DNA of 64,000 bases from Alphaproteobacteria bacterium (GTDB lineage: Bacteria; Pseudomonadota; Alphaproteobacteria; MPNO01; UBA830): assembly GCA_964291215.2 (NCBI GenBank), contig OZ219790.1, forward strand, positions 1,696,001 through 1,760,000, in the 5' to 3' direction. The notes under the pieces were generated by a model. That model was not told the origin of the DNA. It worked only from the letters and a program-made list of their open reading frames with translations, and did not search any database. Position 1 is the stretch's first letter. Each line of letters opens with the position of its first letter. A program made the translations under genes and the position numbers. Shown here piece by piece: positions 7,688 to 61,400 of the stretch.

Positions 7688-8026
7688 AGCATCCATGTTT
7701 CTTGGCAAGGTTTTTGCGGGTGTCTGCGGTGATGTTTTCTGTGGTTGTCCACAAGCGGTGTGGGATTTGCTCTGCGAGCGAGGCGACATGAAGCTTGTGG
7801 TCCCGGCGGCGGGTTGCCGTCCATTGGTCACGTGAACGCGGCTACCTTGCCGCCCCCGGGCACGTGACCGTCCGGGTTCCAGGTGTCCCAAGGCGGTTCG
7901 ATCTCCTCGATGTCGGCCTCGACGATGATCTGCAGACATTCTCCCCAAGTCGTGTCGGAGACTGTCGAGACAGTCCCGATCGCGCTCTCGGCAGGGCCGT
8001 GTCTCCTTCGCTCACTCACCGGTGCT

Positions 8027-8725
8027 TCAGGCAACGCTGCTGTCGCAGCAAGGTGTTCGCCAGAGCTTGCGCATCACGGCGACAATAGCGACTTTGTGGG
8101 CCTTGTGGCGCACCAGATCCGCGTTGAAGCGTGCTGCCGAGGTCGCGGCCATGAACAGGAGATCACGTGGCCTCCGGCGCCCGCCTCGGATATGCCGAGC
8201 ACCGTGGCCATCGGCGCCACCCCGATCAAGGCTGCCGACGCTGCCGAGTTCGGGCATCCAGCAAAGAAGGGCTGCGGCGGTCACTGGATCGAGGTCAGGG
8301 TACCTCTGCTCGGGATCACCGGCGATCACCGCTTTGATCGCCGCGCCGGCAATCATCGAGATCGGCCGCCGAAGCCCTTGTGACGGTCTCGCCATCCACC
8401 TCATCTGCCACTTGCCTGGCGTCGACAAGCGCGGCACCAGGAGATCCCCCAGGCAGTTGAGGAAGGCTTCCTGAGGAGCCACAGGCTCGAGATCGCACCG
8501 TGCCGATCTTGGCGTCAACGCGGTTGGCCCAAAGCCTCGGCGAAGCCCTCAACGGGCAGGACAACCTCGAAGCCCCGGTCATGAAGACACTCCTTGCGGT
8601 GATAGCGGCCTGTCGCCCACCACACGGGTTACCTCGAGGCTGCGAAGCCACGTGCCCGTGGCGTCGTTCGTAAAACGACGCCCCAGATGTCCAGACTGGC
8701 TGACCCCTGCTACTACCTTGACCAT
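8027..8725 (-). pseudogene. IS110 recombinase pseudogene
   Basis: MVKVVAGV.S N-terminus; MPELG..HIRGGR..LFMAA..KVAIVAVMRKL C-terminal domain; many small deletions. Confidence 0.85.
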
Positions 8726-8729
8726 CGTT

Positions 8730-8900
8730 CCTCGCCTTATGATGATACGGTTCAAACCCAAGCATCCATTCAGGACGCAAGGGACGCCAAAGGAGGTTGC
8801 CACGCTCGGGAACGGCTCTATAAAGCCAAGGACGGAACGGCAACCTCCGCGGAGATCGTTTGATCCCCGCTCCCCTGTACGTTCTCACACAGGGGAGCGG
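8730..8900 (-). ncRNA. Putative IS110 bridge RNA, copy 1 (boundaries approximate)
   Basis: 5' hairpin; GGAGGTTGCC..GGCAACCTCC-closed target loop with guides CCGUCCU and UCCCGAG matching the flanks; donor loop AUGGAUGCU and AUAAG matching the end junction. Confidence 0.8.
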
Positions 8901-9000
8901 AATCTCTCTGCAACCATAGCTCTCCCATAGTCGAGGTTATCCACATTTTCCCGCCCCCAACTGCTGTGGATGATTTCATCATCAAGGGGACAAAACCTAG

Positions 9001-10184
9001 CCCCACTTCCAGTCTGAAGTGCAACACCCGGCCCTCATCGCAGTGAGGGCGTAGCCCGAACGGAGATGAGGGCCGGGTGTTGCGCAAATTTTTCCCCTCT
9101 GCCCCTCTCGATTCCGCCTAGGAACAGCTTCAGTTCCTTCAACATCAAGCTTATGCAACGCCTTTGTCGGCTTCAAGCCACTATTTCCCCGTCGCGCGGC
9201 ATGGACCCTGCTGCACGTTGCGGCTTTGGAACGCAGATGGTCAGGGCGGTTTCACTTCAAGATTACCTCCGTCGGCGATCCCAGGACTTTCCGAGTGTTG
9301 AGCCGATCCTTCTGAACATCTTCGTTGCATGTCGCGCGAAAGTCCGTGCCCTTCGGGAAGTACTCCCGCACCAGGCCGTTGGTGTGCTCATTCAAGCCGC
9401 GCTCCCAGGAATGGAAAGGCGAAGAAGAAATCTGCATCAAGTGCGACACGCCTGTGGTCTGCGAACTCCTTGCCGTTGTGATTGTGTGGACCAATAGCGC
9501 ACCAGAGCCGAGCAGGCGGATCATACCGACCGTGTCTTTCTGTCCACCCAGCAAGGTGTATTTCGTGGCACGAGCAACCAGCGACAGCTCCACTGTGAGC
9601 TTTGCCGATGATGGCTCCCAGTCGCCGATCCGTTCCTTTGCCTCCGCAGGGCGCTCGGAAATGTCCACTCGGCCAGGACCCGGCCAGAATGGCATCCGCC
9701 CTTCCAGTTCGGCTTCTTGCCGCGCCGCCGAAGCTTCAAGACACCCCCGGCTCTCCGATCTTCGGCGATCATGGATACGTTCACGGCCCTCCAGTCGAAA
9801 ACGGCCGCTGCTCGGGGCCCTCCCGCAGCTTTTTCTGAGCTTCAACCCGAGGCGTCAACCGCCAGGAAACAGACGAGGCGGCCCTGCGTTTCTGCCATCC
9901 TTTGCGCCTGCTTGTGACGGTAACCCCGTCCCCCGGTGTTGCGCTTGATCTCCCGGAAAATTGTTGATCGGCCCAGCTGCCGAGCAATCGCACCTTGTGA
10001 AAGACCGCTTTTCTGCCTCAATCTGGCATCGCTCTTCGTAGGTGACGGTAGCCTTTGGACATGAACAAGCTCCCTCCATCTTGTACAGGAACTCTCGCCG
10101 CTGCTGGACAGCTCCGCAACATCATGCGTCTAAAAACACATGGCCACAGCCCATCATGTGTTGCACTTCACTATGGAACGGGGG
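9001..10184 (-). mobile_element. IS30-family element, decayed
   Basis: TYEERCQI, ERIGDWE, SWERGLNEHTNGLVREYFPKGTDF; terminal IRs; 3-bp TSD (TAG at 8998-9000 and 10185-10187). Confidence 0.88.
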
Positions 10185-10354
10185 TAGTCATATAAGGACG
10201 GTCTCCCGGTCGCTGGTGCGCAGGCGTCCGCGGTGTCATCCGCCTTGTCGTCTGTGGCTGAAGCGCACGGCAGTTGCGTTGGCGCCGGCCTTCTCGACAG
10301 TGGTCTCGTAGTGCCGGCGACGGCGGAGCAGAGGAGTCTCACGCTAAATTCTGT

Positions 10355-10447
10355 GTAACTGCTCACCCTCTGATTCCGGCTTGATGTCGGGGTAGAGCAA
10401 CCAACGGATTTTCGTGGAGACATGACACTGTAGATCGATTCGGCTAG
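10355..10447 (+). mobile_element. Left-end fragment of the MTase-carrying IS66 element
   Basis: GTAACTGCTCACCC..CCGGCTTGATGTCGGGGTAGAG matches the ends at 51587 and 61482. Confidence 0.7.
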
Positions 10448-10448
10448 T

Positions 10449-11077
10449 CCGAAGTTCCAGAAAATTTCGGCTGATTTCCACCTCAAGTTATTGATTTGGC
10501 GTGGTTTATCGGATTTTCCATACATCAAAATGTACCCATATAATTGTGGGCCGATTTTTGACAGAGAAAAACATATCAGCTATATATAGTGGCCATGTAT
10601 AGTGGCCATGTATATCGAATCCGTCCCCAACCGCTCCTCACCGCCCGCCATCACCGCACCGAACCTCGGGCCCATGTCTTCCTGTGCATGCTCGCCTGCT
10701 ACGTCGAATGGCATGCGCCAGAAACTGAAGCCCATGTTGTTCGACGACGAGGATGCCGAAGGCGCCAGCGCAGGTCTCGGCAAGCGCCCGGGCCGGCAGC
10801 AAGAGGAGCGTTGACGGTGATCCGGTGCACAGCTTCCGTACCCTGATCGACGATCTCGCCACCCTCACCCGCAACACCGTGGCGCCCCGCCTTGCGGGCG
10901 CCGAAACCCTTCCAGCTCACCACGCGGCCCACGCCGGTCCAGAAAAAGGCCCTCGATCTCCTAGGCGTGAAGCCTTGGTGTACCTTGGGCGTGAAGCCTT
11001 GGTGTACCCAGACCGCTGAAATTTATTGAATGTGATTTCTATCAGGCACTTACGTCTGATCGGCTCTGGAACTTCGG
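10449..11077 (+). mobile_element. Internally deleted IS1634-family element (~630 bp)
   Basis: Perfect 13-bp IR CCGAAGTTCCAGA; start MYIESVPNRSSPPAI joined to C-terminal RAHVFLCMLACYVEWH and VHSFRTLIDDLATLTRN. Confidence 0.8.
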
Positions 11078-11079
11078 GC

Positions 11080-13152
11080 GTAAGCATTCGTTCGTGCGGT
11101 GATGACGATCTGCGCTGAGGATTATTTGGGCGGTTGCAAGAAGGGTGCTGGTAATCGGAATTCGGCTGTGCTATCAGGTCGTGCATGGTCATGTGCATCA
11201 AGGATTTCGTGTCATCATCGGGTGCGGACGCCGCTGGCGACGTGCCGCAGTCGTCGTGTAGTGATTCGGCCACCTGGAAGTCCCTGTACGATCGCGAGCG
11301 CATTCGAGCCGAGGTTGCGGAGGGTCGCTGTGAGGAGCTGCGCCTGCGGGAGGTGGAGGGGCCGCGCGAATTCCCTGAAGGCGATTTTCGAGAGCAATCG
11401 TGAGAAGCTGGTAGCTGCCCGTGCGGAGGTCAGGGAAGTTCGGCGGACGGCGAAGCAGCCTCTTGCGCTGAAGCAGGAGGTTGCGCGTCCGGGCCAGCTT
11501 CTTGCCGAGACCGGCGCGCGGAAGCGGTCGACGGTGGTGTCGCTGCGCATGGAGAATGCCGGCCTGAAGACCGCGATGAGGGTTCTGAAGGGTCGGGGCG
11601 GAGAACGACAAGCTTCGTTCGAACAGGTCGTACGGGCGCAAGAGCGAGAAGAGGCAGCGGGCGTCATCGAAGCGCGGCCAGCAGCGCGGCACTCCTGGCC
11701 GCGGCCGGCGTTCGAGGAGGTGGAGGAGCGGCTGGAGGTGGCGGAGGACGCCTGCTCGTGCTGCGTTGCCAACGGTTCGCACCAGGATCATCGAGATCAA
11801 AAGCGGCGGATTGTCCGCCGGGGCTGTGACTGCCCCGGTTCACCGAGCGAGGTGGCGGCCGGCACCGCATTCGGGTGTGGACGCATGTGCTGCACGAGCG
11901 CGTGCATACGGCCCTTGCGCCGCGTCCAGGGGCTTTCGCCGGAAACGCTGGCCAGCGAGCCGGATGCTGCCCCTGTTCGAGCCGCTTCGGGACGCGATCC
12001 TCGCGCACCGGGGTCTGCGCCATGCCGATGCATCCGGGCCCCGAGGGAGGTCCGAAAGTCGCGCCTGGCTCCGGACATCGGTCAGCCGTGACGCGGTCCT
12101 CTCCCTCGCGCAGCGCCGAGGTCGCGGCGAAGCTGTTCGCGGACGCCCCCATGTATCCGGTCTGCGGCCACCGGCGGCCGGTCGGCGTTCGAGGCTGCGC
12201 AGGCGGCGCCGGAGACTGCGGTCTCCGCGCTGTTTGCGGAAGCGCCGAGGCTTCCTAAAGCGGCGCCGGAAGGCAGGCCGCTGCGCTCAACCATCGCGTG
12301 TTCGTCGACCATGGACAACAATTTCGGGAAAAGGGCTGTCAGGGGCCCGGGCGGAAGCCCGGCTTCGGTTCCGACAGCATGGACGGCTGTCATGTACACG
12401 GTACGGTCGCGAGGAGCGGCCTCGACGTTCTGCGCTGGCGCCTGCGCGGAGAACGTCGGCCCGGCGATCTGTCGCCCTGGTTGCCGTGAGCCCGGAGAGG
12501 CGGCGGAGATTCGCAGCGCCGCCGTGAGGTCGAGGGCGCGACTTCATGGTCGCGGAGATGCGGCTGTTGCGACGATCACGGAGCGAACCCCATCGCCCGC
12601 GCCTTCTGCCGCCGCCGGGGGCCCCCCCGAAGCTGATCACACCGCCGCCCCGAAGACCCTCGACGAGCTCCGCCCGCTGACACTGCCTCGGATACACGCG
12701 CTTGGCGGCGCCGCAGATGCGCTACGCGATCCATGCGGCGAGCCGCTGCTTCTCGACCGCCGCATGGAGCGCGCGCTGCAACACCACGCCCGTGCCCTGC
12801 GAGACCCTGGTCGAGGTCCCGCGCCGCGGCGTCTGCCGGCCGCGTCGGAACAACCAGCGGCCGCTACGACCGACATGACAGAAGCCGAAGAAGGACATCT
12901 GGCCCGCTCCGCAAGGACTGGAAGCGGACCCTCAATCGCTGACCCCTGCAACCGGCACGGGATGGCGCTCAGCTCCTCCTCCGCAGCGCCGGGACAAAAC
13001 CGCGACCAATGCGGAAAACACGGCATCGCGCCAGTGCCCCTCACCGCGCATCCCGGTGCACGAAACCGCTCCGGGTGACGCTCGAACTCCCTGACAAAAG
13101 CCCGTCAAACGGACGAAAACAACAACACCTCACCGCACGAACGAACGCTTAC
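11080..13152 (+). mobile_element. IS66-family element, decayed, with downstream DUF4338-like passenger
   Basis: IRs GTAAGCATTCGTTCGTGCG / CGCACGAACGAACGCTTAC; coiled-coil and zinc-finger remnants, DNNF.ERA.RGP. Confidence 0.78.
12524..12942 (+). pseudogene. DUF4338 (DruA-like) protein pseudogene
   Basis: Fragments GRDFMVAEMRLLR, APKTLDELRPL, NTTPVPCETLVEVPR, VGTTSGRYDRH, KPKKDIW..LRKDWKRTLNR. Confidence 0.65.
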
Positions 13153-13233
13153 CCAACCCGCCCTCCGCAAAACCCGGGTACTGCCTTGAAAAATCAGACA
13201 TAATTTAGCGCAAGATCGCCTTGGTTGTGACCG

Positions 13234-14984
13234 CACGGCGATCCCACGCTAGGTTTGTTGGAAGGGTCGGTTTCGCTTGTTCAGGATGATTCGCATTTTC
13301 GCTGGCTTTTTGTGAAGCGGCGTAGTATCCGTTGTCGTGGGGGCAGCGGATTTTTTTGAGACGACTCCGGAGGGTTTTGAGCTCCGGGATGTGGTTGTGC
13401 GCCTTGCGCGGCCTGATGTCGCTGGAACCGTGTTGTTGACCGTATCTTGGTTTCAAGCAGTTTGCCGGTCGAGGTCTGCGTGTTCACTTGGCGCGGGCGG
13501 TGGATTGGCACTGCAGGCTGGCAGACGGGCGCCCTCAGCTGCGCACCCGTTGGCTGGCGCCGCGAGGAACAGTTCAGGCGGTTGCCGGGAACAACACAAG
13601 GTTTGTTGTTCTTGGTGGTCGTTTCCGGGCCTCGTTTGCGTTGTCGCGGATGGTGCGGCGGCGACTGGGAGGCTGCCGTTGCTTGTTGCGGAGTCGTTTG
13701 TCTTGCCGACGAAGTTCAGCGGCACCATGTACAAGGCGGCGAACTGGGAGTGCGTTGGCAGGAGCTATGCGCGCGCCAGCGGGCGCTATACCGACCGGGG
13801 AGGCGAAGGATCTTTACGTGTTTCCGCTGCGTCGCGATGTCGGCTGCGGGATCGTTCGCCGCTTCCTGTGGCGTGGGAGTCTGCGGGCGCCGCTGGTCGG
13901 CGCAGGAGTTGCGCTCGATTTATCAGCGGCGCTTTCCGGCGCGCGCAGGGGCATCGCCTCGGTGCTGTGCGTGATTTTGCTGGCTTGCGAACCGGCACGG
14001 TGCGGTTGCGGCGGCGCACTACGACGCAGAAGGAGCTGGAGCAGCATGGAAGAACAGGGACAAGCCGGTCTCCACCGTGCACCGGGTGCTGCAGAACACC
14101 GACCCGGGATGGATCGAGGATGCGGCGCGCAGCCGCAGGTCGGCAACGCGGTCGACGGCAAGCGCACCGGCGAGGATCATTACGAGACAGTCTCGCTGGC
14201 CGGTATTCGATCCTCAACTATCACGACGGGGAGATCGCTGCCGTCCACGCCGCGACGGCGCTGGCCGTCTGCTCACCCTCGACGCGCTCCACACCACCCG
14301 CGAGGCTGATCATCGAGACCCATCGCGCGGACTGATGGTCAAGGGCAACGCACCTTCGAGAGAGCATCAACTGGAAGACCGCCAGCGCTACAACGAAAAG
14401 CCCGCGCATGGCCGCCAGCGCACCATCTTCACCCCGCTGGCGAAGATGATCAACTAGCAGATCTTCCGCGTCACCCGGCGCGTCGAATTCAAGAAATCCG
14501 GAAAACGGACAACCGAATACGCCATGACCTCGGCCGAACGCGCCTCGCCGCAACAGCTGCTCGCATGGAATCATGGACACTGGGTAGTCGAGAGCCATCA
14601 TCATGTCCGCGATGCCACCTTCCGCGAAGACGACTCCATGCTCCGAACGCGCCCGCAAACAACGCGATCACCCTTGCAATCATCATCCGCAACAAGCTGC
14701 CCAAACCCTTCAACAGCTTCGTCGACACCACTATGCCAACAAGCGCAAGCAGGTCCTGCACGCAATCACAAGACCAGGCTGACCGCGCCTCTCTCCCCGG
14801 CAGAAACTGCAAGCTTTCGAGCCCGGCAACCAAGGCCTCTCGCTCGCCCCGGATACGCCGACCAATCGCGCCCCGCCCCGTAACAGCGCGTCAGCAAATC
14901 TCAAAATCGCAGCCTCGAACGCGTCGACCCGCGCCACGATCAGGACTCCGATCATATCACATCAACAAGCATGGGATCACCTTG
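13234..14984 (+). mobile_element. ISAs1-family element with N-terminal DUF4338 fusion, copy A (decayed)
   Basis: IRs CACGGCGATCCCACGC / GCATGGGATCACCTTG; 9-bp TSD TTGTGACCG; ESFV..TKFSGTMYKAANWECVG followed by VDGK, TLDALHT, VKGN, HWVVESHHHVRDATFRED. Confidence 0.85.
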
Positions 14985-15093
14985 TTGTGACCGCCGGGGT
15001 GCTTGCCCCGGCCGCGGTTATGGGATAGGATTGCCGCACTGAAGCATGTTCATCTGCCACATGACAGATCGACCACAAAGGGGAAGAAGCGCG

Positions 15094-17433
15094 ATGACAC
15101 AGAATATTTCCCGGACCGGCGGCGCTGACGACGACACCCTGACGGGGGGCGTCGGCAATGACATCCTGAAAGGCGGCCTCGGCGACGACACGCTGACGGG
15201 CGGCGCTGGCGACGACACGCTGACGGGCGGAACCGCAAGCCCGGGTGCCGACGCGGACTTTCTCCTCATGAACCCCGGCAGTTCGGACGATGACACGCTG
15301 GACGGCGGTGCTGGCGACGACACGCTGGACGGCGGTGCTGGCGACGACACGCTGGACGGCGGCACGGACAACGACACGCTCTATGGCGGCGACGGGGACG
15401 ACACGGTGGATGGCGGTGCGGGCAACGACCGTCTGGAAGGCGGCCGGGGCGCCGACAGGCTGACCGGCGGCCGGGGCGCGGACTCGCTCTATGGCGGCAG
15501 TGGCCATGACGTCTTTGCGTTCGCGGTCGGCGACGGGGCCGATTACATCGGCGATTTCGAGGCTGGCGACATCATCGAGATTGCCGGGGTGTCCGGCGGT
15601 TTCGGGGATCTGGTGATCGAGCAGAAGGGCTTCCATACCGTCATCCGCTACGGCGACGGCGACACGATCAAGCTGGAGGGCGTGTCGGCGGCCTCCCTTG
15701 GCGCGGACGACTTCCGGTTCCTTCCCGTCGAGGCAGCCCCGCCGGAGGGCGGCGGCGAGGACGCTCTTGCACAGGGCGCGCCGCCGGAGGGCACGTCCGG
15801 CGACGCCTCGAGCGGCGGGCCTTCTGGCGGCGAGGTGCTGAAGGGTAGCAAGGACGCGGACACGCTCACCGGCGGGGCCGGCGACGACACCCTGCGTGGC
15901 TACGGGGGCGCCGACACGCTGACCGGCGGGGCTGGCGACGACCTCCTCTATGGCGGCCTGGGCGCCGACACGCTGACCGGCGGGGCTGGCGACGATACGC
16001 TGGGGGGCGGCAAGGGCAACGACACGCTGGACGGCGGCGCGGGCGACGACACGCTGCGCGGCGCCAGGGGTGCCGACACCCTGCGCGGCGGCGCGGGCGA
16101 TGACACGCTGGGGGGCGGCAAGGGCGCCGACACCTTCGTGTTCGTGGCGGGAGACGGCCACGACACGATCACCGACTTCGGAGCCGGCGACCGGATTCGC
16201 CTCGACGGCGAGTCCGGCGGATTCGCGGCGCTGGTCATCGAGCAGGACGGCGCCGATACCGTCATTCGCTACGGCGGCGGCGACACGATCACCCTGTCGG
16301 GCGTGTCGGCGGACAGCCTGGATGCGAACGACTTCATCCTGCCTGCTGGCGGTGGCGGCGACGATCACGAAAAGGCCGCTTACGGCGCCAGTACGAGCGA
16401 CGACGACAACGACGGCGGCAATCCCCTCGATAACGACAACGACGGTGGCAACCCGAATGCCGGCAACGATGGCGGCGACCCGAATGCCGGCAACGATGGC
16501 GGCAACCCGAATGCCGGCAACGATGGCGGCGAGGACACGGACACGATCCCGGGCACTTCGGGCGATGATCCGCCAGACATTGAGGCCTGCGGCGTGACCA
16601 TTCGTGGCAGCGCGGACCGCGATTGGCTCTTTGGCACCGCGTGCGACGACACGATCTACGGCAACTCGGGTGACGACAAGCTCTACGGTCGAAAAGGCGA
16701 TGACATAATCTATGGCGGCGGGGGTAACGACCTCCTCCGCGGCAATTCGGGCGACGATGAGCTCTGGGGTGGGGACGGGCACGACTTTCTGACCGGTCGT
16801 AACGGCGACGACACGCTGGAAGGCGGCAAGGGCAACGATTTTCTCTCGGGTGGTTTGGGGGTTGACACGCTCCGGGGCGGGGAGGGCGCCGACCGATTCG
16901 GTTTCTTCGAGAAGGGCTACTACAGCCAGTGGGGATTCAAGGATGGCAGCGACGACACGATCCTCGACTTCGAGGATGGAACGGACCGCCTCGACTTCCA
17001 CTCGGTCGACGGGGAACTCGGCTTCGATGACCTCGAGATCTGGCAGTCCGACAGCGGCGCTGCCATCAACTGGTCCCTGGGGACCATCACCCTGGAGGGG
17101 ATCCAGACGTCGCAACTGACCGAAGCCGATTTTCACTTCGTCGGCCTGCCCGACTGGGCACTCGACGACAGCAAGGGCGACGACACGCTCCGAGGCCGCC
17201 CGGGCTACGACTCGTTCGGATTCGCGAATGGTGGCGACGACACGATCGTCGGCTACGAGGACGGAATAGACCGCATCGACTTCTACACGGAAGACTCGGA
17301 GCTCGACTTCGACGACCTCGTGATCCGGCAGTCCGACAGCGGCGCGGTCATCACCTGGTCCCTGGGGACTGTTACCGTGGTGGGGATTCAGGCGTCGCAA
17401 CTGACCGAGGCCGATTTCGACTTCGTCGGCTGA
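15094..17433 (+). CDS. RTX / hemolysin-type calcium-binding repeat protein (probable T1SS substrate)
   Basis: Dozens of GGxGDDTLx nonapeptides and four DTIxDF..DF modules; no signal peptide; frame intact. Confidence 0.88.
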   Translation: MTQNISRTGGADDDTLTGGVGNDILKGGLGDDTLTGGAGDDTLTGGTASPGADADFLLMNPGSSDDDTLDGGAGDDTLDGGAGDDTLDGGTDNDTLYGGDGDDTVDGGAGNDRLEGGRGADRLTGGRGADSLYGGSGHDVFAFAVGDGADYIGDFEAGDIIEIAGVSGGFGDLVIEQKGFHTVIRYGDGDTIKLEGVSAASLGADDFRFLPVEAAPPEGGGEDALAQGAPPEGTSGDASSGGPSGGEVLKGSKDADTLTGGAGDDTLRGYGGADTLTGGAGDDLLYGGLGADTLTGGAGDDTLGGGKGNDTLDGGAGDDTLRGARGADTLRGGAGDDTLGGGKGADTFVFVAGDGHDTITDFGAGDRIRLDGESGGFAALVIEQDGADTVIRYGGGDTITLSGVSADSLDANDFILPAGGGGDDHEKAAYGASTSDDDNDGGNPLDNDNDGGNPNAGNDGGDPNAGNDGGNPNAGNDGGEDTDTIPGTSGDDPPDIEACGVTIRGSADRDWLFGTACDDTIYGNSGDDKLYGRKGDDIIYGGGGNDLLRGNSGDDELWGGDGHDFLTGRNGDDTLEGGKGNDFLSGGLGVDTLRGGEGADRFGFFEKGYYSQWGFKDGSDDTILDFEDGTDRLDFHSVDGELGFDDLEIWQSDSGAAINWSLGTITLEGIQTSQLTEADFHFVGLPDWALDDSKGDDTLRGRPGYDSFGFANGGDDTIVGYEDGIDRIDFYTEDSELDFDDLVIRQSDSGAVITWSLGTVTVVGIQASQLTEADFDFVG
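16447..16527 (+). repeat. 3 x 27-bp tandem repeat inside the RTX gene (G[ND]PNAGNDG)
   Basis: GGCAACCCGAATGCCGGCAACGATGGC repeated three times, with one substitution. Confidence 0.9.
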
Positions 17434-17729
17434 CACACCTGTCGCGCGGCGCCAGAGCTATGCGAGAAGCGCCGCGCTGAGCGCCAGCCAGAGGGGCAGG
17501 AGCGTTGCGGGCCCGACATGCGGGCGCCCGGCGGCAGCTGACTGTGGCACGGATGCAACAGGTCCGGGCAATCGGCGTTCGGGTGGCCTGCCCGTTCCCT
17601 CCCGGCACATGCGGCCCGGGCGCGCCTGCGGCCTCATGCGCTTTCCCCGGCCTGTTTTCTGCCGCGGCGCCCGTTCGACAAGGCCTGTCCAACCCCGCGG
17701 ATCGGGCGGGTCTGGTTCAACGGGCCCCA

Positions 17730-17992
17730 CAATATCCCCGCCGAGGCAAGGGGGAGCTGAAAGGTCCGAACATCCTCCAAGTCCAAACGATCCGGAGACC
17801 GGCGGCGCTCCCAAAAGGACCGCACCGAATGGAGGGACATGGACGCCCTTGCCCACTGGCCCAAGGCCAGCATCCGCCACCCGTGGCCAAGCCAGCGTCT
17901 TGTCGTCAGGACCTGAGGGAGGAGCCGGATGCGAACAGCGCATGTCCGGATCCGTGCGGCGGAACCGGGGAAACCCGGTTCCCTATCGCGAT
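17730..17992 (+). mobile_element. Group II intron 3' remnant (maturase tail, domains V and VI)
   Basis: RRRSQKDRTEW..PKASIRHPWPSQRL; GAGCCGGATGCG..CGCATGTCCGGATC domain V; domain VI hairpin ending CCCTATCGCGAT. Confidence 0.8.
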
Positions 17993-20485: not shown

Positions 20486-20500
20486 TCCTGCCGGCGCGGC

Positions 20501-24798: not shown

Positions 24799-24846
24799 TG
24801 TCCGTCCTTTGCTGCACTGACCTGATGCCGGGGTCGTCAAGAGCTG

Positions 24847-26881: not shown

Positions 26882-26902
26882 GAACAACCGGAGAGTCCGG
26901 CG

Positions 26903-40464: not shown

Positions 40465-40466
40465 TG

Positions 40467-42347: not shown

Positions 42348-42355
42348 ACGCGAAG

Positions 42356-45489: not shown

Positions 45490-46568
45490 TGTGATGAGAG
45501 CGACTGGTCGGCACAGGAGTTGCGCTCGATTTATCAGCACTTCAGGGCGCTTTCCGGCGCGCGCAGGGGCATCGCCTCGGTGCTGTGCGTGATGGCGCGG
45601 CTTGCGAACCGGCGCGGTGGCGCACTACGACGCAGAAGGAGCTGGAGCAGCGTGGAAGAACAGGGACAAGCCGGTCTCCACCGTGCACCGGGTGCTGCAG
45701 AACACCGACCCGGGATGGATCGAGGATGCGGCGCGCAGCCGCAGGTCGGCAACGACGGCAAGCGCGGCCGCACCGGCGAGGATCATTACGAGACGGTCTC
45801 GCTGGCACGGGGCCGGTATTCGATCCTCAACTGTCACGACGGGGAGATCGCTGCCGTCCACGCCGCGACGGCCGTCTGCTCACCCTCGACGCGCTCCACA
45901 CCACCCGCGAGGCTGATCGTCGAGACCCATCGCGCGGACTGATGGTCAAGGGCAACGCACCTTCGAGACAAGGTGATCCCATGCTTGTTGATGTGATGTG
46001 ATCTGAGTCCTGATCGCGGCGCGGGTCGACGCGTTCGAGGCTGCGATTTTGAGATTTGCTGACGTGCTGTTACGGCGCGGGGCGCGATTGGTCGGCGTAT
46101 CCGGGGCGAGCGAGAGGCCTTGGTTGCCGGGCTCGAAAGCTTGCAGTTTCTGTCGGGGAGAGAGGCGCGGTCAGCCTGGTCTTGTGATTGCGTGCAGGAC
46201 CTGCTTGCGCTTGTTGGCATAGTGGCGTCGACGAAGCTGTTGAAGGGTTTGGGCAGCTTGCGTTTGTTGCGGATGATGATTGCGAGGGTGATCGCGTTGT
46301 TTGCGGGCGCGTTCGGAGCATGGAGTCGTCTTCGCGGAAGGTGGCATCGCGGACATGATGGTGGCTCTCGACTACCCAGTGTCCGCGATTCCATGCGAGC
46401 AGCTGTTGCGGCGAGGCGCGCTCAACCGAGCATCCATGTTTCTTGGCAAGGTTTTTGCGGGTGTCTGTGGTGATGTTTTCTGTGGTTGTCCACAAGCGGT
46501 GTGGGATTTGCTCTGCGAGCGAGGCGGCATGAAGCTTGTGGTCCCGGCGGCGGGTTGCCGTCCATTGG

Positions 46569-46775
46569 TCACGTGAACGCGGCTACCTTGCCGTCCCCGG
46601 GCATGGTAACGTGACCGTCTGGGTTCCAGGTGTCCCAAGGCGGTTCGATCTCCTTGATGTCGACCTCGACGATGATCTGCAGACATTCTCCCCAAGTCGT
46701 GTCGTAGAGGGAGACTGTCGAGACAGTCCCGATCGCGCTCTCGGCAGGGGTGAGGGCCGTGTCTCCTTCGCTCAC
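46569..46775 (-). CDS. Small acidic ORF in the IS110 right end
   Basis: 68 aa; homologs at 52594-52794 (open) and 7828-8020 (frameshifted). Confidence 0.4.
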   Translation of the reverse strand: MSEGDTALTPAESAIGTVSTVSLYDTTWGECLQIIVEVDIKEIEPPWDTWNPDGHVTMPGDGKVAAFT

Positions 46776-47577
46776 TCACCGGTGCTTCAGGCAACGCTGC
46801 TGTCGCAGCAAGGTGTTCGCCAGAGCTTGCGCATCACGGCGACAATCGCGACCTTGTGGGCCTTGCCGGCAGTCTTGAGGCGCACCAGGTCCGCGTTGAA
46901 GCGTGCCGGTTGCGGCCATGAACAGGAGATCGCGTGGCCTTCGGCGCCCGCCACGGATGTGCCGAGCACCGTGGTCGTTGGCCATCGGCGCCACCCCGAT
47001 CAAGGCTGCCGCCTGCCGACGGTCGAGACTGCCGAGTTCGGGCATCCAGAAGGGCCGCGGCAGTCACCGGACCGGGGATCGAGGTCAGGATGGCGTACCT
47101 CTCGGCTTGCTCGGGATCACCGGCGATCACCGCTTTGATTGCCGCGCCGGCAATGCGATCATTGAGATCGGCCGCCGAGGCCCTTGTGACGGTCTCGCCA
47201 TCCACCTCATCTGCCACCTGCTTGGCGTCGACAAGCGCGGCATCAAGAGATCCTCCAGGCTCTTGAGGAAGGCATCCTGAGGAGCCACAGGCTCAAGATC
47301 GCCCAGCCGATCTTGGCTAGCGCGTCGACGCGGTCGGTCTTCGCCAGATGGCCCATCGCCTCGGCGAAGCCCGCAACGGGTTGACGAGAATAACCTCGAA
47401 GCCCCGGTCATGAAGACACTGGTGAACCTTGCGGTGATAGCGGCCTGTCGCCCACCACCCGGCTCACCCCGAGGCCGCGAAGCCACCTGCCCGTGGCGTC
47501 GTTCGCAAAACAATGCCCGCCGCACAGATGTCCAGACTGGCTGACCCCTGCTACTATCTTGACCATCGTCCCTTGCT

Positions 47578-47750
47578 CCTCGCCTTACGATGATACGGGT
47601 TCAAACCCAAGCATCCAGCGAGGGACGTCAAGGGAGGTTGGCCGACCACACTCGGTCGCGGCTCTGTCAAGGTCAAAACGGCAACCTCCGCGGAGATCGT
47701 TTGATCCCCGCACCCCGCTCCCCTGTGCGTGTTCGCTCAGGGGAGCGGAA
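47578..47750 (-). ncRNA. Putative IS110 bridge RNA, copy 2 (boundaries approximate)
   Basis: Same scaffold as copy 1; target guides UGACCU and CGACCGAG match the ISAs1 site TGAC-CT-CGGTCG. Confidence 0.78.
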
Positions 47751-49006
47751 TCTCTCTGCAACCATAGACCGGACGCTCTCCCACAGATCCACATTTTCCC
47801 GCCCCCAACTGCTGTGGATGATTGCATCATCAAGGGGACAAAACCTAGTCATATGGCGTATTCGGTTGTCCGTTTTCCGGATTTCTTGAATTCGACGCGC
47901 CGGGTGACGCGGAAGATCTGCTAGTTGATCATCTTCGCCAGCGGGGTGAAGATGGTGCGCTGGCGGCCATGCGCGGGCTTTTCGTTGTAGCGCTGGCGGT
48001 CTTCCAGTTGATGCTCTCTCGAAGGTGCGTTGCCCTTGACCATCAGTCCGCGCGATGGGTCTCGATGATCAGCCGCGCGGGTGGTGTGGAGCGCGTCGAG
48101 GGTGAGCAGACGGCCGGCAACCGGCGCCGTCGCGGCGTGGACGGCAGCGATCTCCCCGTCGTAATAGTTGAGGATCGAAACCGGCATACCGGTCCCGTGC
48201 CAGCGAGACCGTCTCGTAATGATCCTCGCCGGTGCGGCCGCGGATGCGCTTGCCGTCGACCGCGTTGCCGACTTCCGGGCGCGGCTGCGCGCCACATCCT
48301 CGATCCATCCCGGGTCGGTGTTCTGCAGCACCCGGTGCACGGTCGATTTGGAAACCGGCTTGTCCCTGTTCTTCCATGCTGCTCCAGCTCCTTCTGCGTC
48401 GTAGTGCGCCGCCGCGCCGGTTCGCAAGCCGCGCCATCACGCACAGCACCGAGGCGATGCGGTGCCCCTGCGCACGCCGGAAAGCGCCGCTGATAAATCG
48501 AGCGCAACTCCTGCGCCGACCAGCGGCGCCCGCAACTCCCACGCCACAGGAAGCGGCGAACGATCCCGTAGCCGACGTCACGACGCAGCGGAAACACGTA
48601 AAGATCCTTCGCCTCCCCGGTCGGTATAGCGCCCGCTGGCGCGCGCATAGCTCCTGCCAACGCACTCCCAGTTCGCTGCCTTGTACATGGTGCCGCTGAA
48701 CTTCGTCGGCGAGACAAACGACTCCGCAACAAGTAACGGATGGCGCAGCCTCCCAGTCGCCGCCGCACCATCCGCGACAACGCAAACGAGGCAAGGCCCG
48801 GAAACGACCACCAAGAACAACAAACCTCGTGTTGTTCCCGGCAACCGCCTGAACTGTTCCTCGCGGCGCCAGCCAATCCAACGGGTGCGCAGCTGAGGGC
48901 GCCCGTCTGCCAGCCCGCAGCGCCAATCCACCGCCCGCGCCAAGTGAACACGTAGCGCAGACCTCGACCGGCAAACTGCTTGAAACCAAGAGTATCTACT
49001 CACCCC

Positions 49007-49209
49007 TAGTGTTATGTCCCGTAAATACGCGCATATAATCTTTCAAGCTTGTCGAAGATCGAATCTGCGGTTACGACCCATACGAAAGGGGATGTGGATT
49101 TTCGGTGGGCAACCAGAGGGGAAGTTGGCGGCCGCGGGGCATATCGAAAGGCCTCCTGTTGCGAGAGAGACCGAAAATATATCACACTTATTTACGGGAC
49201 ACTACACTA
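49007..49209. mobile_element. MITE-like element (~200 bp)
   Basis: IRs TAGTGTTATGTCCCGTAAATA / TATTTACGGGACACTACACTA; no transposase. Confidence 0.75.
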
Positions 49210-51334: not shown

Positions 51335-51463
51335 TCACCCGGCCTTGCGCTTCATCAGCGCGCCGCCTCCGAGATGCGTTTCCACATACAGATCATGCGG
51401 GTGCTGGAGCCCCGGAAGTAGCTGGCCCAGCCCGCTCGTCGCCTTCGATCCAAAGTAGCCCAC
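51335..51463 (-). pseudogene. Dam-like DNA methyltransferase N-terminal fragment
   Basis: GYFGSKATSGL..PHDLYVETHLGGGALMKRK; stop overlaps the transposase ATG; second copy at 61230-61358. Confidence 0.7.
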
Positions 51464-51965
51464 TGGCGGTCCCCGTCGTTCTCGATGACCACCACTAAGC
51501 GAATCGGCATGCAGTGTCAAATCTCCACGAAAACCCGTTCGTTGCTCTACCCCGACATCAAGCCGGAACTAGGGGGTGAGCAGTTACAACCAAGATACGG
51601 TCAACAACACGGTTCCAGCGACATCAGGCCGCGCAAGGCGCACAACCACATCCCGGAGCTCAAAACCCTCCGGAGTCGTCTCAAAAAAATCCGCTGCCCC
51701 CACGACAACGGATACTACGCCGCTTCACAAAAAGCCAGCGAAAATGCGAATCATCCTGAACAAGCAAAACCGACCCTTCCAACAAACCTAGCGTGGGATC
51801 GCCGTGCTTGGAGGTCAGGACTTTCTCACGCTGCATTCGATCTTGTCGACTGCTGATGGAGGGAGGTTGTACAACCTGCCGGGTTTTCTAGCTTCGGGGC
51901 CATCCGCGGTCGTCGCCGGCGGCGTTGCCGGTGCGCGGGCGGGTTGTTTTCGGGATGTAGGCGGG

Positions 51966-52935
51966 TTGTGGGCGACAGGCCGCTATCACCGCAAGGTTCA
52001 CCAGTGTCTTCATGACCGGAGCTTCGAGGTTATTCTCGTCAACCCGTTGCGGGCTTCGCCGAGGCGATGGGCCAACCGCGTCGACGCCAAGATCGGCTGG
52101 GCGATCTTGAGCCTGTGGCTCCGCCTTCCTCAAGAGCTTGGAGGATCTCCTGGTGCCGCGCTTGTCGACGCCAAGCAGGTGGCAGATGAGGTGGATGGCG
52201 AGACCGTCACAAGGGCCTCAGCGGCCGATCTCGATGACCACATTGCCGGCGCGGCGATCAAAGCGGTGATCGCCGGTGATCCCGAGCAGAGGTACGCCAT
52301 CCTGACCTCGATCCGGTGACCGCCGCGGCCCTGCTGGATGCCCGAACTCGGCAGCGTCGGCAGCCTTGATCGGGGTGGCGCCGATGGCCAACGACCACGG
52401 TGCTCGGCACATCCGTGGCGGGCGCCGAAGGCCACGTGATCTCCTGTTCATGGCCGCAACCGGCACGCTTCAACGCGGACCTGATGCGCCTCAAGACTGC
52501 CGGCAAGGCCCACAAGGTCGCGATTGTCGCCGTGATGCGCAAGCTCTGGCGAACACCTTGCTGCGACAGCAGCGTTGCCTGAAGCACCGGTGAGTGAGCG
52601 AAGGAGACACGGCCCTCACCCCTGCCGAGAGCGCGATCGGGACTGTATCGACAGTCTCCCTCTACGACACGACTTGGGGAGAATGTCTGCAGATCATCGT
52701 CGAGGCCGACATCGAGGAGATCGAACCGTCTTGGGACACCTGGAACCCGGACGGTCACGTGCCCGGGGACGGCAAGGTAGCCGCGTTCACGTGACCAATG
52801 GACGGCAACCCGCCGCCGGGACCACAAGCTTCATGTCGCCTCGCTCGCAGAGCAAATCCCACACCACTTGTGGACAACCACAGAAAACATCACCACAGAC
52901 ACCCGCAAAAAACCTTGCCAAGAAACATGGATGCT
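51966..52935 (+). mobile_element. IS110 element copy 3 (5'-truncated, bridge region lost)
   Basis: Recombinase remnant to 52582; right junction GATG-CT-CGGTCGAG into ISAs1 copy C. Confidence 0.82.
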
Positions 52936-53806
52936 CGGTCGAGCGCGCCTCGCCGCAACAGTTGCTCGCATGGAATCGCGGACACCGGGGGGGGGGGAGC
53001 GAGAGCCATCATCATGTCCGCGACGCCACCTTCCGTGAAGACGACCCCATGCTCCGAACGCGCCCGCAAACAACGCGATCACCCTCGCAATCGCCGTCAT
53101 CATCCACAACAAGCTCCCCAAACTCTTCAACAGCTTCCCACCATGCCGACAAGCGCAGACAGATCCTGCACGCAATCACAAGACCAAGCTGACCGCGCCT
53201 CTCTCCCCGACAGAAACCGCAAGCTTTCGAGCCCGGCAACCAAACCCGGCAGGCCTCTCGCCCGCCCCGGATACGCAGACCAATCGCGCCCCGCGCCGCA
53301 ACAGCGCGTCAGCAAATCTCAAAATCGCAGCCTCGAACGCGTCGACCCGCGCCGCGATCAGGACTCCGATCACATCACATCAACAAGCATGAGATCACCT
53401 TGGCAGGCTCCGAAGAACCCTTGTTCGCCGCCTTCAACGGTAGTATGGCCGGATCTGACTTCTCGTTCATCATCGGTTTGCGGATTAGTTCCTTTCCTCT
53501 GCGGCCCCTCCACGACAGAGGGGCAATTGAAAGACCTCCCAAGTCCCTGCTTCGGCGCGTGCCATGGTTCTCGGACCCCGCGGAGCCCCTGCTCGCCTCA
53601 CCAAAACGGCTCGCAGGGTGTTGCCTTCGGCCAAACGGACGACCTCGGCACTCCGGTTTCATAGCATCTCGTGGCTCAATAGCCCGGCCCACGCCTGCCG
53701 CTCCCCAACGCTTCGCCTGACGCCTCACGACGCATGGTTCACGGAGAAAGTGGTGGTTAGCCTCTCTTCCTGCCGGGACTTGCACCCGACAACATTCCAC
53801 CAGTTA

Positions 53807-56226: not shown

Positions 56227-56843
56227 TTAGCCTGGCGCACTCGCTTTCGCTACGGCCCTCCGGTTTGTTCACCGCCCTAGCTGACCGAGAACCGGCTGGG
56301 CACTGCGTCCCAACCACAGCGGCTTCTACTTCCCAGCTCGCTGGCCCAGGGTCGCCCCTGAGCCAGTGGGATATACTACGGTGCCAAACTGACAATTGCG
56401 GGACTTACACCCGCAGGTACAGCAGCTGGACTCGCTGCACGGAACCGAGAAACTCTGGCAGGGATACCAACTCCTCCTCTACTTCGTCGAAAATTACCAA
56501 AAATGCGGAAACTCGATATGCAGAAATCAACGAACTCGATAGTGTCAGATTGAAAGCGCAGGAGCCCGGATCACATGTCGGCAGAAAAACCGGAACCGGA
56601 CCGAAACGACAACAGGGAAGAAACACGATCCTGAAAACAGGACTTTCCCACGCTGTGACTGATGTTTTGGATGACCGCTGAACGGGGCACAAATTTCCGC
56701 ATTCTTGCTAGTATTTTGACATTATTGTATTGATGCATATAGTGACTTCAGTTTCGTCCGGGCATCCTTCCTCGTGAAACGCCGGTCGACGGTGACATCG
56801 GCCGCATTACGCCGTTCCACCCATGCTGCCGTCTCCCGCCGCA

Positions 56844-57962
56844 CAAGGTGATCCCATGCTTGTTGATGTGATGTGATCGGAGTCCTGATCGCGGCGCGGG
56901 GCGCGATTGGTCGGCGTATCCGGGGCGAGCGAGAGGCCTTGGTTGCCGGGCTCGAAAGCTTGCGGTTTCTGTCGGGGAGAGAGGCGCGGTCAGCCTGGTC
57001 TTGTGATTGCGTGCAGGACTTGCTTGCGCTTGTCGGCATAGTGGTGTCGACGAAGCTGTTGAAGGATTTGCGCAGCTTGTTGCGGATGATGACGGCGATT
57101 GCGAGGTTGATCGCGTTGTTTGCGGGCGCGTTCGGAGCATGGAGTCGTCTTCGCGGAAGGTGGCGTCGCGGACATGATGATGGCTCTCAACCACCCGGTG
57201 CCCGCGATTCCATGCGAGCAACTGTTGCGGCGAGGCGCGCTCGACCGAGTGCTGATAAATCGAGCGCAACTCCTGCGCCGACCAGCGGCGCCCGCAACTC
57301 CCACGCCGCAGGAAGCGGCGAACGATCCCGCGTCACGACGCAGCGGAAACACGTAAGGATCCTTCGCCTCCCCGGTCGGCGCCCGCTGGCGCGCGCATAG
57401 CTCCTGCCAACGCACTCCCAGTTCGCCGCCTTGTACATGGTGCCGCTGAACTTCGTCGGCAAGACAAACGACTCCGCAACAAGCAACGGATGGCCGTACG
57501 CAGCCTCCCAGTCGCCACCGAGACGCCGCGCCATCCGCGACAACGCAAACGAGGCCCGGAAACACCCGGCGACCACCAGGAACAACAAACCTCGTGTTGT
57601 TCCCGGCAACCGCCTGAACTGTTCCTCGCGGTGCCAGCCAATCCAACGGGTGCGCAGCTGAGGGCGCCCGTCTGCCAGCCCGCAGCACCAATCCACCGCC
57701 CGCGCCAGGTGAACACGCGGATCTCGACCGGCAAACTGCTTGAAACCAAGATACGGTCAACAACACGGTTCCAGCGACATCAGGCCGCGCAAGGCGCACA
57801 ACCACATCCCGGAGCTCAAAACCCTCCGGAGTCGTCTCAAAAAAATCCGCTGCCCCCACGACAACGGATACTACGCCGCTTCACAAAAAGCCAGCGAAAA
57901 TGCGAATCATCCTGAACAAGCGAAACCGACCCTTCCAACAAACCTAGCGTGGGATCGCCGTG
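56844..57962 (-). mobile_element. DUF4338-ISAs1 copy D (large internal deletion)
   Basis: Both IRs; 9-bp TSD CCCGCCGCA. Confidence 0.85.
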
Positions 57963-58481
57963 CCCGCCGCATGGTGTCACGGTCGGGAATGCGTCGCCGA
58001 AGGCATTGCCGCGACAGCACGCCAATCTCGATCTCGGCCATGTTGAGCTTGCTTCCGTGCTTCTGCGTGTAGCGAAACTCGAACCGCTTTCGCACCCGCC
58101 TCCTCGGGCTCGAAGGCTTCATACAGCGACTGGGCGTGTTCAGATTGTCCGGCACGATCTTCCTGTCGGGGAAATGGTCGTCGGCAAGCTCCCGGATGAA
58201 GTGCGCCCGGTCCCGCGGCGGTCGGTGACTTTCACCGTGCGCCAGTTCTCGTTGGGCGCAAAGGCCAGGAAGAGGTTGGCCGTGCCGTTTCGTTCATAGT
58301 CGACCACCTCCGGCTGACCGGGGGATGCGGGTTTCCTGCTGCCGGCTGGTCTCGCACACCAGCACCTCGTCCCCGGCAAAGTCCCGCTGATAAATGTCAA
58401 GCATGTCCGCCGCCACGAACTGTGCGCTCCGGTGCGGTGGAATGCACCAGTACTGCTTCAGCCACCGCTTGATCTCTTTTT

Positions 58482-61400
58482 GTATCTACTCACCCCTTGT
58501 TGGGTTCTGATTGGCCATAGTGCTCGTTGATGATGTCTGCGGCTTTTCCGTCGAGGGCGATCTGGGTGGCGACGAGTGGGTTGTAGCCGAGTGCGACCAT
58601 GGAGGTGAGGTAGCTTGAGCTCCGGCACCATGCTTTTGCGTGGAGCGGAAGCATCCGGACACCTTGACCTTTGCCATCCTGATCTTCTGTTCTCCGGCAT
58701 TGTTGGTGAAGCTGACGTTGGGGTCGTCTGTGAAGCGCAGGTTTTCGTGTTTCACGAGACGTTCGTGCAGGTTGTGCGCGTTTGCTATGCGTCCACGGTT
58801 TCCTTTCGGCGGCGGCGGGATATCGGGCAGTTCCCTGGCGCCCTGATGGTGCGGTAGCGCTTGCGCCCGGCGTCGTTCAGGGTTTTGGATGCGCTCTTGT
58901 TGACCTTGTGGCAGACCTCGCGGAGCAGGCTCTTCATCAGTCGCGCGGTAGCCTCGACGACAAAGGTCAGTTCGCGCAGCAGGTGGCTACCGCACAGCTG
59001 GTGGCTACACTGGCCCATGTACGAGGCCCAGCAGTCGTGGACCCACGGCGATCCCACGCTAGGTTTGTTGGAAGGGTCGGTTTCGCTTGTTCAGGATGAT
59101 TCGCATTTTCGCTGGCTTTTTGTGAAGCGGCGTAGTATCCGTTGTCGTGGGGGCAGCGGATTTTTTTGAGACGACTCTGGAGGGTTTTGCGCTCCGGGAT
59201 GTGGTTGTGCGCCTTGCGCGGCCTGATGTCGCTGGAACCGTGTTGTTGACCGTATCTTGGTTTCAAGCAGTTTGCCGGTCGAGGTCTGCGCTACGTGTTC
59301 ACCTGGCGCGGGCGGTGGATTGGTGCTGCGGGCTGGCAGACGGACGCCCTCAGCTGCGCACCCGTTGGATTGGCTGGCGCCGCGAGGAACAGTTCAGGCG
59401 GTTGCCGGGAACAACACGAGGTTTGTTGTTCTTGGTGGTCGTTTCCGGGCCTTGCCTCGTTTGCGTTGTCGCGGATGGTGCGGCGGCGACTGGGAGGCTG
59501 CGTACGGCCATCCGTTACTTGTTCCGGAGTCGTTTGTCTCGCCGACGAAGTTCAACGGCACCATGTACAAGGCAGCGAACTGGGAGTGCGTTGGCAGGAG
59601 CTATGCGCGCGCCAGCGGGCGCTATACCGACCGGCACGGGGAGGATCATTACGAGACAGTCTCGCTGATCGAGCACGGGACCGGTATGCCGGTTTCGATC
59701 CTCAACTATAACGACGAGGGCGGGGAGATCGCTGCCGTCCACGCCGCGACGGCGCCGGTTGCCGGCCGTCTGCTCAACCTCGACACGCTCCACACCACCC
59801 GCGCGGCTGATCATCGAGACCCATCGCGCGGACTGATGGTCAAGGGCAACGCACCTTCGAGAGCATCAACTGGAAGACCGCCAGCGCTACAACGAAAAGC
59901 CCGCGCATGGCCGCCAGCGCACCATCTTCACCCCGCTGGCGAAGATGATCAACTAGCAGATCTTCCGCGTCACCCGGCGCGTCGAATTCAAGAAATCCGG
60001 AAAACGGACAACCGAATACGCCATGACCTCGGCCGAACGCGCCTCGCCGCAACAGCTGCTCGCATGGAATCGCGAACACTGGGTAGTCGAGAGCCACCAT
60101 CATGTCCGCGATGCCACCTTCCGCGAAGACGACTCCATGCTCCGAACGCGCCCGCAAACAACGCGATCACCCTCGCAATCATCATCCGCAACAAACGCAA
60201 GCTGCCCAAACCCTTCAACAGCTTCGTCGGCGCCCGCCACCACCATGGCGACAAGCGCAAGCAGGTCCTGCACGCAATCACAAGACCAGGCTGACCGCGC
60301 CTCTCTCCCCGACAGAAACTGCAAGCTTTCGAGCCCGGCAACCAAGGCCTCTCGCTCGCCCCGGATATGCCGACCAATCGCGCCCCGCGCCGCAACAGCG
60401 CGTCAGCAAATCTCAAAATCGCAGCCTCGAACGCGTCGACCCGCGCCGCGATCAGGACTCCGATCACATCAACAAGCATGGGATCACCTTGGTCGTGGAC
60501 CAGAACGCCCTTGTAACACGGGATGATGCCGATCTCTTGCCCGCGCTTGCGGTGCGGGAACTTGCACGTCAGGGTCCCACGACATGGAGCCACTTACTGT
60601 TGATCCGAAATCGTCGACATCGGGCGTTGCAGGAGGTGCGCCACGGCGGCCTCCTCCCATGACGCATCGTGAAAGCATAGCCGAGGCCTCGGAGAGCTTG
60701 ATGCCGGAGATCGCCTGCACAAACGCGACGGCACGGCGCAGGGACAGCATCTGGGCGACCAGCAGGTTGATGACAAGGGCCTGAATGCCGATGCCGTACT
60801 GCACGGGATGTTGTCGGGGAACCGGCCCCGGGCCTTGCACTTCGGACATTCCTTGATCTCGGCGCGGCGCTCGACGATCTCGAACACGATGTCGTGCGGC
60901 GCTCCCGATCGACGGGGCCGTCGATGTCGGCGCCGCAGGCGTCGCAGGCCGCGACCGTTTCCTCGACGATGGTCTTGCGCAGGTTGTCGCCCATCTGCCG
61001 GTTCGGCTTCGGGCCCTTGCCGTTGCTTCCGGCACGCTCTCGTCCTTGTCCGTCTGTGACGGCGGCAGACCGGAGTTCCGGCTCGTGCGTAGTCTTCTCC
61101 AGAAGGACGACGATGAGGATGTCGAGCAGGATGACGAAGACGCGGATCACGGCCTCTTCCGCCACCTCGCCGGCAGCGCGACGATCTTGGCCGCTTCGAA
61201 CTCCTCGCGCGCCGCGTTGACCGTCGCCATCACCCGGCCTTGCGCTTCATCGGCGCGCCGCCTCCGAGATGCGTTTCCACATACAGATCATGCGGAGGCT
61301 GGAGCCCCGGAAGCAGCTGGCACAGCCCGCTCGTCGCCTTCGATCCAAAGTAGCCCACTGGCGGTCCTCGTCGTTCTCAATGACCACCACTAAGCGAATC

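Follow-up and report, generated by a model that had tools for sequence, protein, structure and literature searches.

The window analysed here, a 64,000-bp stretch of the genome of an Alphaproteobacteria bacterium (GenBank assembly GCA_964291215.2, contig OZ219790.1), spans C1:1696001-1760000 of a 6.15-Mb genome in two contigs, C1 and C2, and carries three decayed copies of an insertion sequence (IS) that we assign to the IS110 group. Copy 1, of the alpha lineage (7688-9000, minus strand), has a frameshifted transposase gene with a weak PF02371 match and a right end, CATGGATG-CT, at 7688-7697. Direct reading of the sequence confirms the first-pass annotation of the window in that this copy interrupts an IS1634-like transposase gene, the 3′ part of which occupies 7293-7687 (minus strand) and the 5′ part of which resumes at 10195-10328; the host matches a sequence (L017) whose fragments hit NF033559 below the cut-off. 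The left tip of copy 1 has been displaced to 10185-10196 by an IS30-family pseudogene (9001-10184; NF033563) inserted 10 bp inside it with duplication of CTA, and the true left junction (10185-10201, minus strand) consists of target CCGTC, core CT and element tip TATATGACTA. All guides of this copy lie on the minus strand: the left target guide TTCCGTCCT (8829-8837) matches the target CCGTC-CT, the right target guide TTCCCGAG (8805-8812) is complementary to CT-CGGGA, and in the donor-binding loop (8736-8769) the left guide ATGGATGCT matches the right end and the right guide CATCATAAG matches the left tip discontiguously.

Copy 2, of the beta lineage (46429-47852, minus strand), is also frameshifted and has lost 8 bp of its left junction, including the CT core. 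Its target-binding loop (47651-47678, minus strand), with left guide TTTTGACCT (47670-47678) and right guide GACCGAG (47651-47657), spells TGAC-CT-CGGTC, and its donor-binding loop (TGGATGCT ... CATCGTAAG) lies at 47584-47617 (minus strand). Copy 3 (51962-52935, plus strand) is 5′-truncated and retains neither a left end nor a guide RNA. As described previously, copies 2 and 3 terminate at the same base in two different copies of an IS combining a DruA (DUF4338) domain with an ISAs1 transposase (DruA-ISAs1). The 3′ parts of these hosts occupy 45969-46428 (minus strand; 5′ part at 47853-48991) and 52936-53402 (plus strand), with site alleles CT-CGGTTG and CT-CGGTCG, respectively. Two further DruA-ISAs1 pseudogenes are empty, one at 13234-14984 (plus strand), with terminal inverted repeats and a flanking duplication, and the other at 59044-60491 (plus strand); their sites, 14525-14536 and 60024-60035, both read TGACCT-CGGCCG (C-type, as opposed to the T-type CGGT). 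Every site named in the first-pass annotation was present on re-reading and the alleles are as it gave them, but its comparison of two invaded with two empty sites missed a fifth, in an internally deleted DruA-ISAs1 (56844-57962, minus strand) that is joined at CT (57243-57259) to a T-type right half and contains no IS110. The same arrangement recurs at C2:2237898, where a large stretch of the interior is likewise missing and the break meets the right half of the IS110 target precisely at a CT; both possibly reflect aberrant IS110 excision via a second CT.

Genome-wide, end searches recovered 65 left and 71 right ends, corresponding to some 65-70 decayed copies, a few ends having been replaced by nested elements. 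The right end of the family reads CATGGATG-CT and the left tip CT-TATATGAC; CT is found at both junctions and a single CT in empty sites, with no longer target duplication. In profile searches, fragments of the family match PF01548, PF02371 and NF033542, those of one copy scoring above the cut-off (31.2 bits for PF01548 and 33.6 bits for PF02371) and those of the window copies being weak. An intact 315-aa member from a genome of the same genus (the L007 element), which scores 205.6 against a cut-off of 140 on NF033542, has the same right end and left donor guide and a different target loop. The left end folds better than shuffled sequences (z = -4.0 and -4.7) and yields, from 15 sequences, a two-loop consensus with compensatory changes in 7 of 33 pairs that resembles the IS621 bridge RNA; Rfam returned no match for it. 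The guides lie upstream of the transposase gene, in the left end, which is not the IS1111-type arrangement. Given the recombinase domains, the 2-bp core, the two-loop RNA and the covariation of guides with landing sites described below, all present, we place the family, on sequence features, among the predicted bridge RNA recombinases of the IS110 group.

A tree of 66 copies sets 39 beta copies (support 100/100) apart from 18 alpha-type and 9 older ones, the split between alpha and older copies being weakly supported. Several 5-7-bp pieces of the transposase gene are missing from each of the 17 alpha copies, which suggests movement in trans or later homogenisation; this lineage probably had no functional enzyme itself when it moved. 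Five copies (C2:3385618, C2:845880, C2:2862763, C2:1089839 and C1:1771146) have left and right flanks from different targets, indicating genome rearrangement between IS110 copies.

The guides vary within the family and do so together with the landing sites. Alpha copies carry TTCCGTC/CGGGAA, beta copies combine left guides TGAC, CGAC or TCAC with right guides CGGTC, CGGAC, CGATC or CGCTC, and older copies carry further variants, giving about ten in this genome, with single-step intermediates present. Among distinct guide-site pairs, left guides match their flanks at 3.0 of 4 positions against 2.24 after permutation (n = 18, p = 2e-4) and right guides at 3.07 against 2.56 (n = 14, p = 0.003), and the excess also holds when all pairs are counted. 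The match is concentrated at positions -5 to -1 and +1 to +5. Within the latter, position +4, at which the T-to-C difference between invaded and empty ISAs1 copies had been proposed as an escape allele, is the least conserved, at 0.72 here and 0.67 in relatives from other genomes. At one and the same ISAs1 site, the sister copies C2:261255 and C2:3343635 differ in that the left guide has one mismatch in one of them and a full match in the other, which may represent a single instance of a guide adapting to the site where it landed.

The same guide logic recurs elsewhere. A DNA search of 40 relatives found a real homologue in one of them. Of 91 related loci, both ends were readable in 37, which come from 10 genomes; 35 of these 37 have an open frame of at least 310 aa. 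These give 27 distinct guide-site pairs, in which 6.5 of 8 positions match, against 3.6 after permutation (p = 2e-4). The first mismatch falls at +4 in 6 of these pairs; a single genome supplies five of them, and the remaining one is a G-T wobble. Of 25 sites, 16 have a transposase match in the flank (ten families), 5 lie in or by host genes and 4 have no match. In three relatives both flanks continue one transposase profile, and insertion there is thus the breaking lesion. For the present genome, the earlier suggestion that IS110 inactivates its hosts is moot, since none of the 19 invaded hosts measured keeps a full frame once the insert is cut out.

Most copies of the family lie within other transposase genes. 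Recurrent sites were found in DruA-ISAs1 family A (21 copies), IS1634 (14), a DruA-IS4 element (4) and ISNCY (3), and at two positions of a second DruA-ISAs1 family (11 and 5 copies); a third ISAs1, an IS66, another IS110 gene and a 2-oxoglutarate oxygenase gene each contain a single site. Two ISAs1 transposase families carry a fused DruA domain, which takes its name from Druantia defence systems and also lies directly upstream of an IS4 transposase. A general targeting of catalytic codons can be discarded, the sites being spread over at least six IS families, on both strands and mostly off catalytic codons: two ISAs1 sites fall at Thr-Ser codons, presumably upstream of the HW-x-x-E motif, and other sites are antisense within DruA or ISAs1 parts. 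When every copy is counted, multicopy sequence (at least three occurrences) makes up 60 of 65 left flanks and 67 of 71 right flanks, against 100 of 300 random positions and 43-63% of the distinct outer flanks of unguided IS30-, ISAs1- and IS66-type elements. Distinct left junctions, counted by hand, are multicopy in 12 of 17 cases, still above random (p = 0.003). The proposal of an RNA-guided parasite of multicopy IS elements is largely borne out as a description of the outcome, and guides do match sites inside other transposase genes. In the family's own gene and other repeats, 63 empty matches to TGAC-CT-CGAT were present and no insertion was seen. The multicopy share of the genome is about 28-33%, and one IS66-type element alone exceeds 150 copies by a wide margin.

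A genome-wide count of the ISAs1-A site by allele and occupancy, which the first-pass annotation had called for, gave 21 invaded copies, all T-type, and 21 empty copies, 13 C-type and 8 T-type (nominal Fisher p = 1.6e-5, the copies not being independent). Nowhere in the genome does an IS110 right end abut a C allele, and equal invasion of CGGCCG was not found. Sorted by match to the guide, ISAs1-A has 21 invaded, 7 empty matching and 16 other empty sites, the last comprising the 13 C-type sites, one core change and two internal deletions. The corresponding numbers are 14, 1 and 13 for IS1634, 11, 5 and 17 for site C and 3, 1 and 8 for ISNCY, and for the lightly invaded sites E and F they are 5, 19 and 15 and 4, 4 and 5, respectively. 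At site G, 1 of 30 is invaded and 26 of the 29 empty ones carry an 11-bp match with a mismatch at +5. Matching empty sites are therefore scarce in ISAs1 and three other hosts, whereas two hosts keep many. Of the 13 informative empty copies of IS1634, 11 are marked by substitutions within the 12-bp site, three separate changes in all, and the alpha guide has 14 of 15 perfect IS1634 sites filled, three perfect single-copy sites being empty. Two empty sites have a particular structure: that at C2:3297599 keeps, between two CT dinucleotides, 8 bp resembling the IS110 left tip, like an excision footprint at an internal CT, and the empty ISAs1 at C2:516743 is flanked left and right by the haplotypes that characterise invaded copies, the state expected after precise excision.

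In five other genomes, each scored by its best 13-30 matches (in three of them the best 30 of at least 40), matching sites among the empty ones listed number 0 of 8, 2 of 4, 9 of 25, 21 of 22 and 22 of 26, with 8, 9, 5, 8 and 4 invaded sites, respectively. Among the matches listed, matching empty sites are depleted in two of these genomes and not in the other three; depletion coincides with heavy invasion, as predicted by survivorship.

We favour, with a probability of roughly 0.65, the reading that a now decayed, multi-guide IS110 family spread by RNA-guided insertion into multicopy and probably harmless IS sites, and that empty sites tend to be mismatched because the matching ones were filled and because alleles are linked to the insert. 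By analogy with IS621 and ISEc21, the element would circularise, express its RNA and insert at the CT core of a guide-matched site, and a point change in the target loop would re-aim the lineage. Lineages with a guide for a multicopy IS would have many safe, identical sites and expand, and insertions into single-copy genes would mostly be purged. Under heavy invasion the matching empty sites would run out, recombination among repeats would shuffle copies, spread occupied junctions and keep the T allele tied to the insert, and mismatch alleles would represent ordinary decay rather than selected defence.

Several observations weigh against this reading. No intact transposase of the family was found in the assembly, none of 101 tblastn pieces covering at least 280 of 315 aa without a stop, which makes the helper enzyme hypothetical; two intact IS110-type genes with frames of about 430 aa (C1:480856 and C1:884303) were considered as helpers and rejected, as they belong to another family and are 24% identical to the intact relative. 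Among the 19 ISAs1-hosted copies in which a guide can be read, 11 have a right guide that mismatches their own site, which implies either tolerance of mismatches or a later exchange of guides. Per distinct left junction, the multicopy share of 12 of 17 does not differ significantly from the 54 of 109 for unguided IS30 and ISAs1 (p = 0.12), and the excess per copy thus stems from expansion at few sites; in this respect a preference for IS elements is not supported. The share of transposase flanks in relatives, 16 of 25, is likewise a raw count. Independent insertion events could not be counted, the trees being poorly resolved and the segments mosaic. Finally, of the 37 deletions that vary among alpha copies, 17 vary among beta copies too, with the same breakpoints, so that shared deletions are weak markers of descent and may be parallel; for this reason shared junction deletions were abandoned as proof of descent.

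One alternative is that each host family was hit once or twice and that the occupied junction was then copied by transposition or gene conversion, the guide mismatch being irrelevant. A marker outside the guide is as strong as the guide position: a lineage with a 7-bp deletion 17-24 bp left of the core accounts for 15 of 19 invaded and 1 of 21 empty ISAs1 copies, and invaded and empty ISAs1 differ along the whole host (p = 3e-4), implying shared ancestry near the junction and that the 21 invaded copies are not independent trials. In one pair of copies at different loci, a near-identical tract takes in the broken left junction together with most of the IS110, and the distal host parts differ, and an 8-bp deletion destroying the left core is common to nine copies, although it may be recurrent; the absence of a per-site excess of nesting over unguided IS points the same way. 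The IS1634 data argue otherwise. In only 1.3% of 12-bp windows of that host are the empty copies altered as often as at the target (15.9% in ISAs1-A and 13.4% in ISNCY), a background against which its three substitutions stand out. IS1634 hosts are equally diverse whether invaded or empty (pi 0.03-0.10), their alpha IS110 copies are tighter (0.013-0.036), and these copies are equally close to three others at unrelated, near-matching sites, a combination that fits repeated guided insertion. Transposition of whole composites as the main route was rejected, host and IS110 distances being uncorrelated, although 8 of 19 composites keep target duplications. Host and IS110 segments form incongruent mosaics, with 3 of 21 segment pairs congruent at p < 0.05, and the mosaicism of the beta segments implies that recombination among repeats has overwritten history. 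Copying of a few occupied junctions is accordingly an unlikely account of the whole pattern, albeit one with a tangible minority chance.

A further alternative is that guide-mismatched host copies were selected since invaded copies stop spreading, with T-to-C as a true escape allele. None of the 13 C-type sites is invaded and the mismatch alleles of IS1634 and ISNCY were never found joined to IS110; linkage can explain the former too. Diversity is slightly lower among empty than among invaded ISAs1 copies (p = 0.04 for substitutions, 0.08 with indels). Under such selection the mismatch lineage should carry a sign of recent expansion, but C-type and T-type empty copies are equally diverse (0.032 and 0.032, p = 0.46) and unstructured (p = 0.80), in a comparison of low power between 13 C-type and 6 T-type copies, two old, divergent T copies having been left out. 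The C allele has, moreover, a simple origin: an ancestral stretch, TCG GTC GAG GCC GA (GGTCGAGGCCGA), is kept in three undeleted copies, and the allele corresponds either to a 6-bp deletion of GGTCGAGGCCGA or to a T-to-C change following an alternative 6-bp deletion, in elements dominated by 5-8-bp deletions (66 shared in ISAs1, 54 in IS110). Mismatches at +4 occur naturally, two hosts retain many matching empty sites, and in an IS66 family that has a single invaded right junction, most copies (about 120 of 153) carry a core-destroying deletion. The hosts are pseudogenes, and both ends and the target duplication survive in 8 of 19 invaded copies. The half-match tolerance reported in a preprint (10.64898/2026.08.14.744561) also speaks against one mismatch as a sure block. 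The idea that T-to-C is an escape allele was not borne out: it is unproven and unlikely, and we regard selection of mismatched hosts as improbable. A broader version, in which the guide walked by single-base steps (from TGAC/CGGTC to CGAC/CGGAC, TGAC/CGATC and TCAC/CGCTC) onto successive IS families, filled them to near-saturation after loss of the enzyme and favoured mismatched hosts, with the same arms race repeated in related bacteria, appears doubtful as well, if slightly less so.

That the mosaic alleles and the apparent association arose in assembly or polishing is very improbable. The mosaicism is extreme over a few hundred bases and, among the contig pieces listed from public runs, none spans the whole element. 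Against this, three public sequencing runs of one study, one of them possibly from the source sample, contain the same IS variants and 5-6-bp indel polymorphisms, as well as contigs spanning the IS110-ISAs1 right junction (which do not resolve T versus C in other samples), and the guide logic recurs in intact relatives from 10 genomes.

IS4321 and IS5075, of the IS1111 group, hit the terminal repeats of Tn21-family transposons; they resemble the present family as guide-type IS aimed at another mobile element and differ in being IS1111-type with terminal-repeat targets. ISEc21, of the IS110 group, targets the conserved second-D codons of IS3-family transposase genes, and in ISMch6 the guide has been redirected naturally by few base changes (Siddiquee et al. 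2024, PMC11187229). The present family shares with them an upstream non-coding guide RNA, targets inside transposase genes of other IS and redirection by few guide bases; it differs from ISEc21 in having sites in at least six IS families, on either strand and mostly at non-catalytic codons, and several guides in one genome. IS621 lands in repetitive extragenic palindromic (REP) elements and prefers perfect matches (Durrant et al. 2024, PMC11208160), and its excision, for which the target loop pairs with the two flanks, takes place far less often than insertion (PMC13626964). As in IS621, the present family has a CT core, a left-end RNA with a target and then a donor loop, guides that include the core, a discontiguous right donor guide (PMC11208160, PMC13626964) and, in its intact relative, a transposase of about 315 aa. 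However, the informative part of the match runs from about -5 to +5 instead of 7+4, the right end is long, at about 200-500 bp, and all copies in the present genome are broken. ISPpu9 and the transposase-free ssr9 modules, short RNA-only units in REP sites (10.1101/2025.01.17.633520), are likewise IS110-family units apparently moving without their own transposase into multicopy targets, whereas alpha is a near-full-length frameshifted element whose movement in trans is inferred. Another IS110 is reported to use copy-out routes in which the donor is retained (10.1101/2025.10.25.684509).

The targeting of other IS by IS110 elements is therefore already known from ISEc21, and the present case extends that behaviour. 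What is new is its breadth, with many guides in one genome and its relatives, many IS families without a shared motif and a countable record of filled and empty sites. In the literature accessible to our searches we found no report of escape alleles against IS110 guides or of several guides for different IS in one genome, although supplements such as the guide-target tables of Durrant et al. may hold the family. This genome holds a dense record, bearing on how bridge-RNA guides are re-aimed in nature, of guide variants beside their landing sites, in which the counts of filled and empty alleles act as a natural assay of mismatch tolerance; the intact relatives make the re-aiming steps testable in the laboratory. 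Should host alleles prove to be under selection, they would represent mobile elements resisting an RNA-guided parasite by target change.

Deletions of 5-8 bp, many of them with 0-2 bp of microhomology, abound in all IS families examined, as a comparison of 7688-9000 with 46429-47852 in the window illustrates. Some deletions that recur in both IS110 lineages carry lineage-specific substitutions 8 bp away on both sides, and the recurrent breakpoints suggest a site-preferring, recurrent deletion process or very short gene conversion. A frequent insertion point for other IS is the CTAG immediately within the left tip of IS110 (8985-9000 in the window, and in other tips), where about ten copies carry a different element. 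Elsewhere in the window, a large open reading frame at 14977-17436 contains internal glycine-aspartate-rich repeats, which we take to resemble calcium-binding RTX-type nonapeptides.

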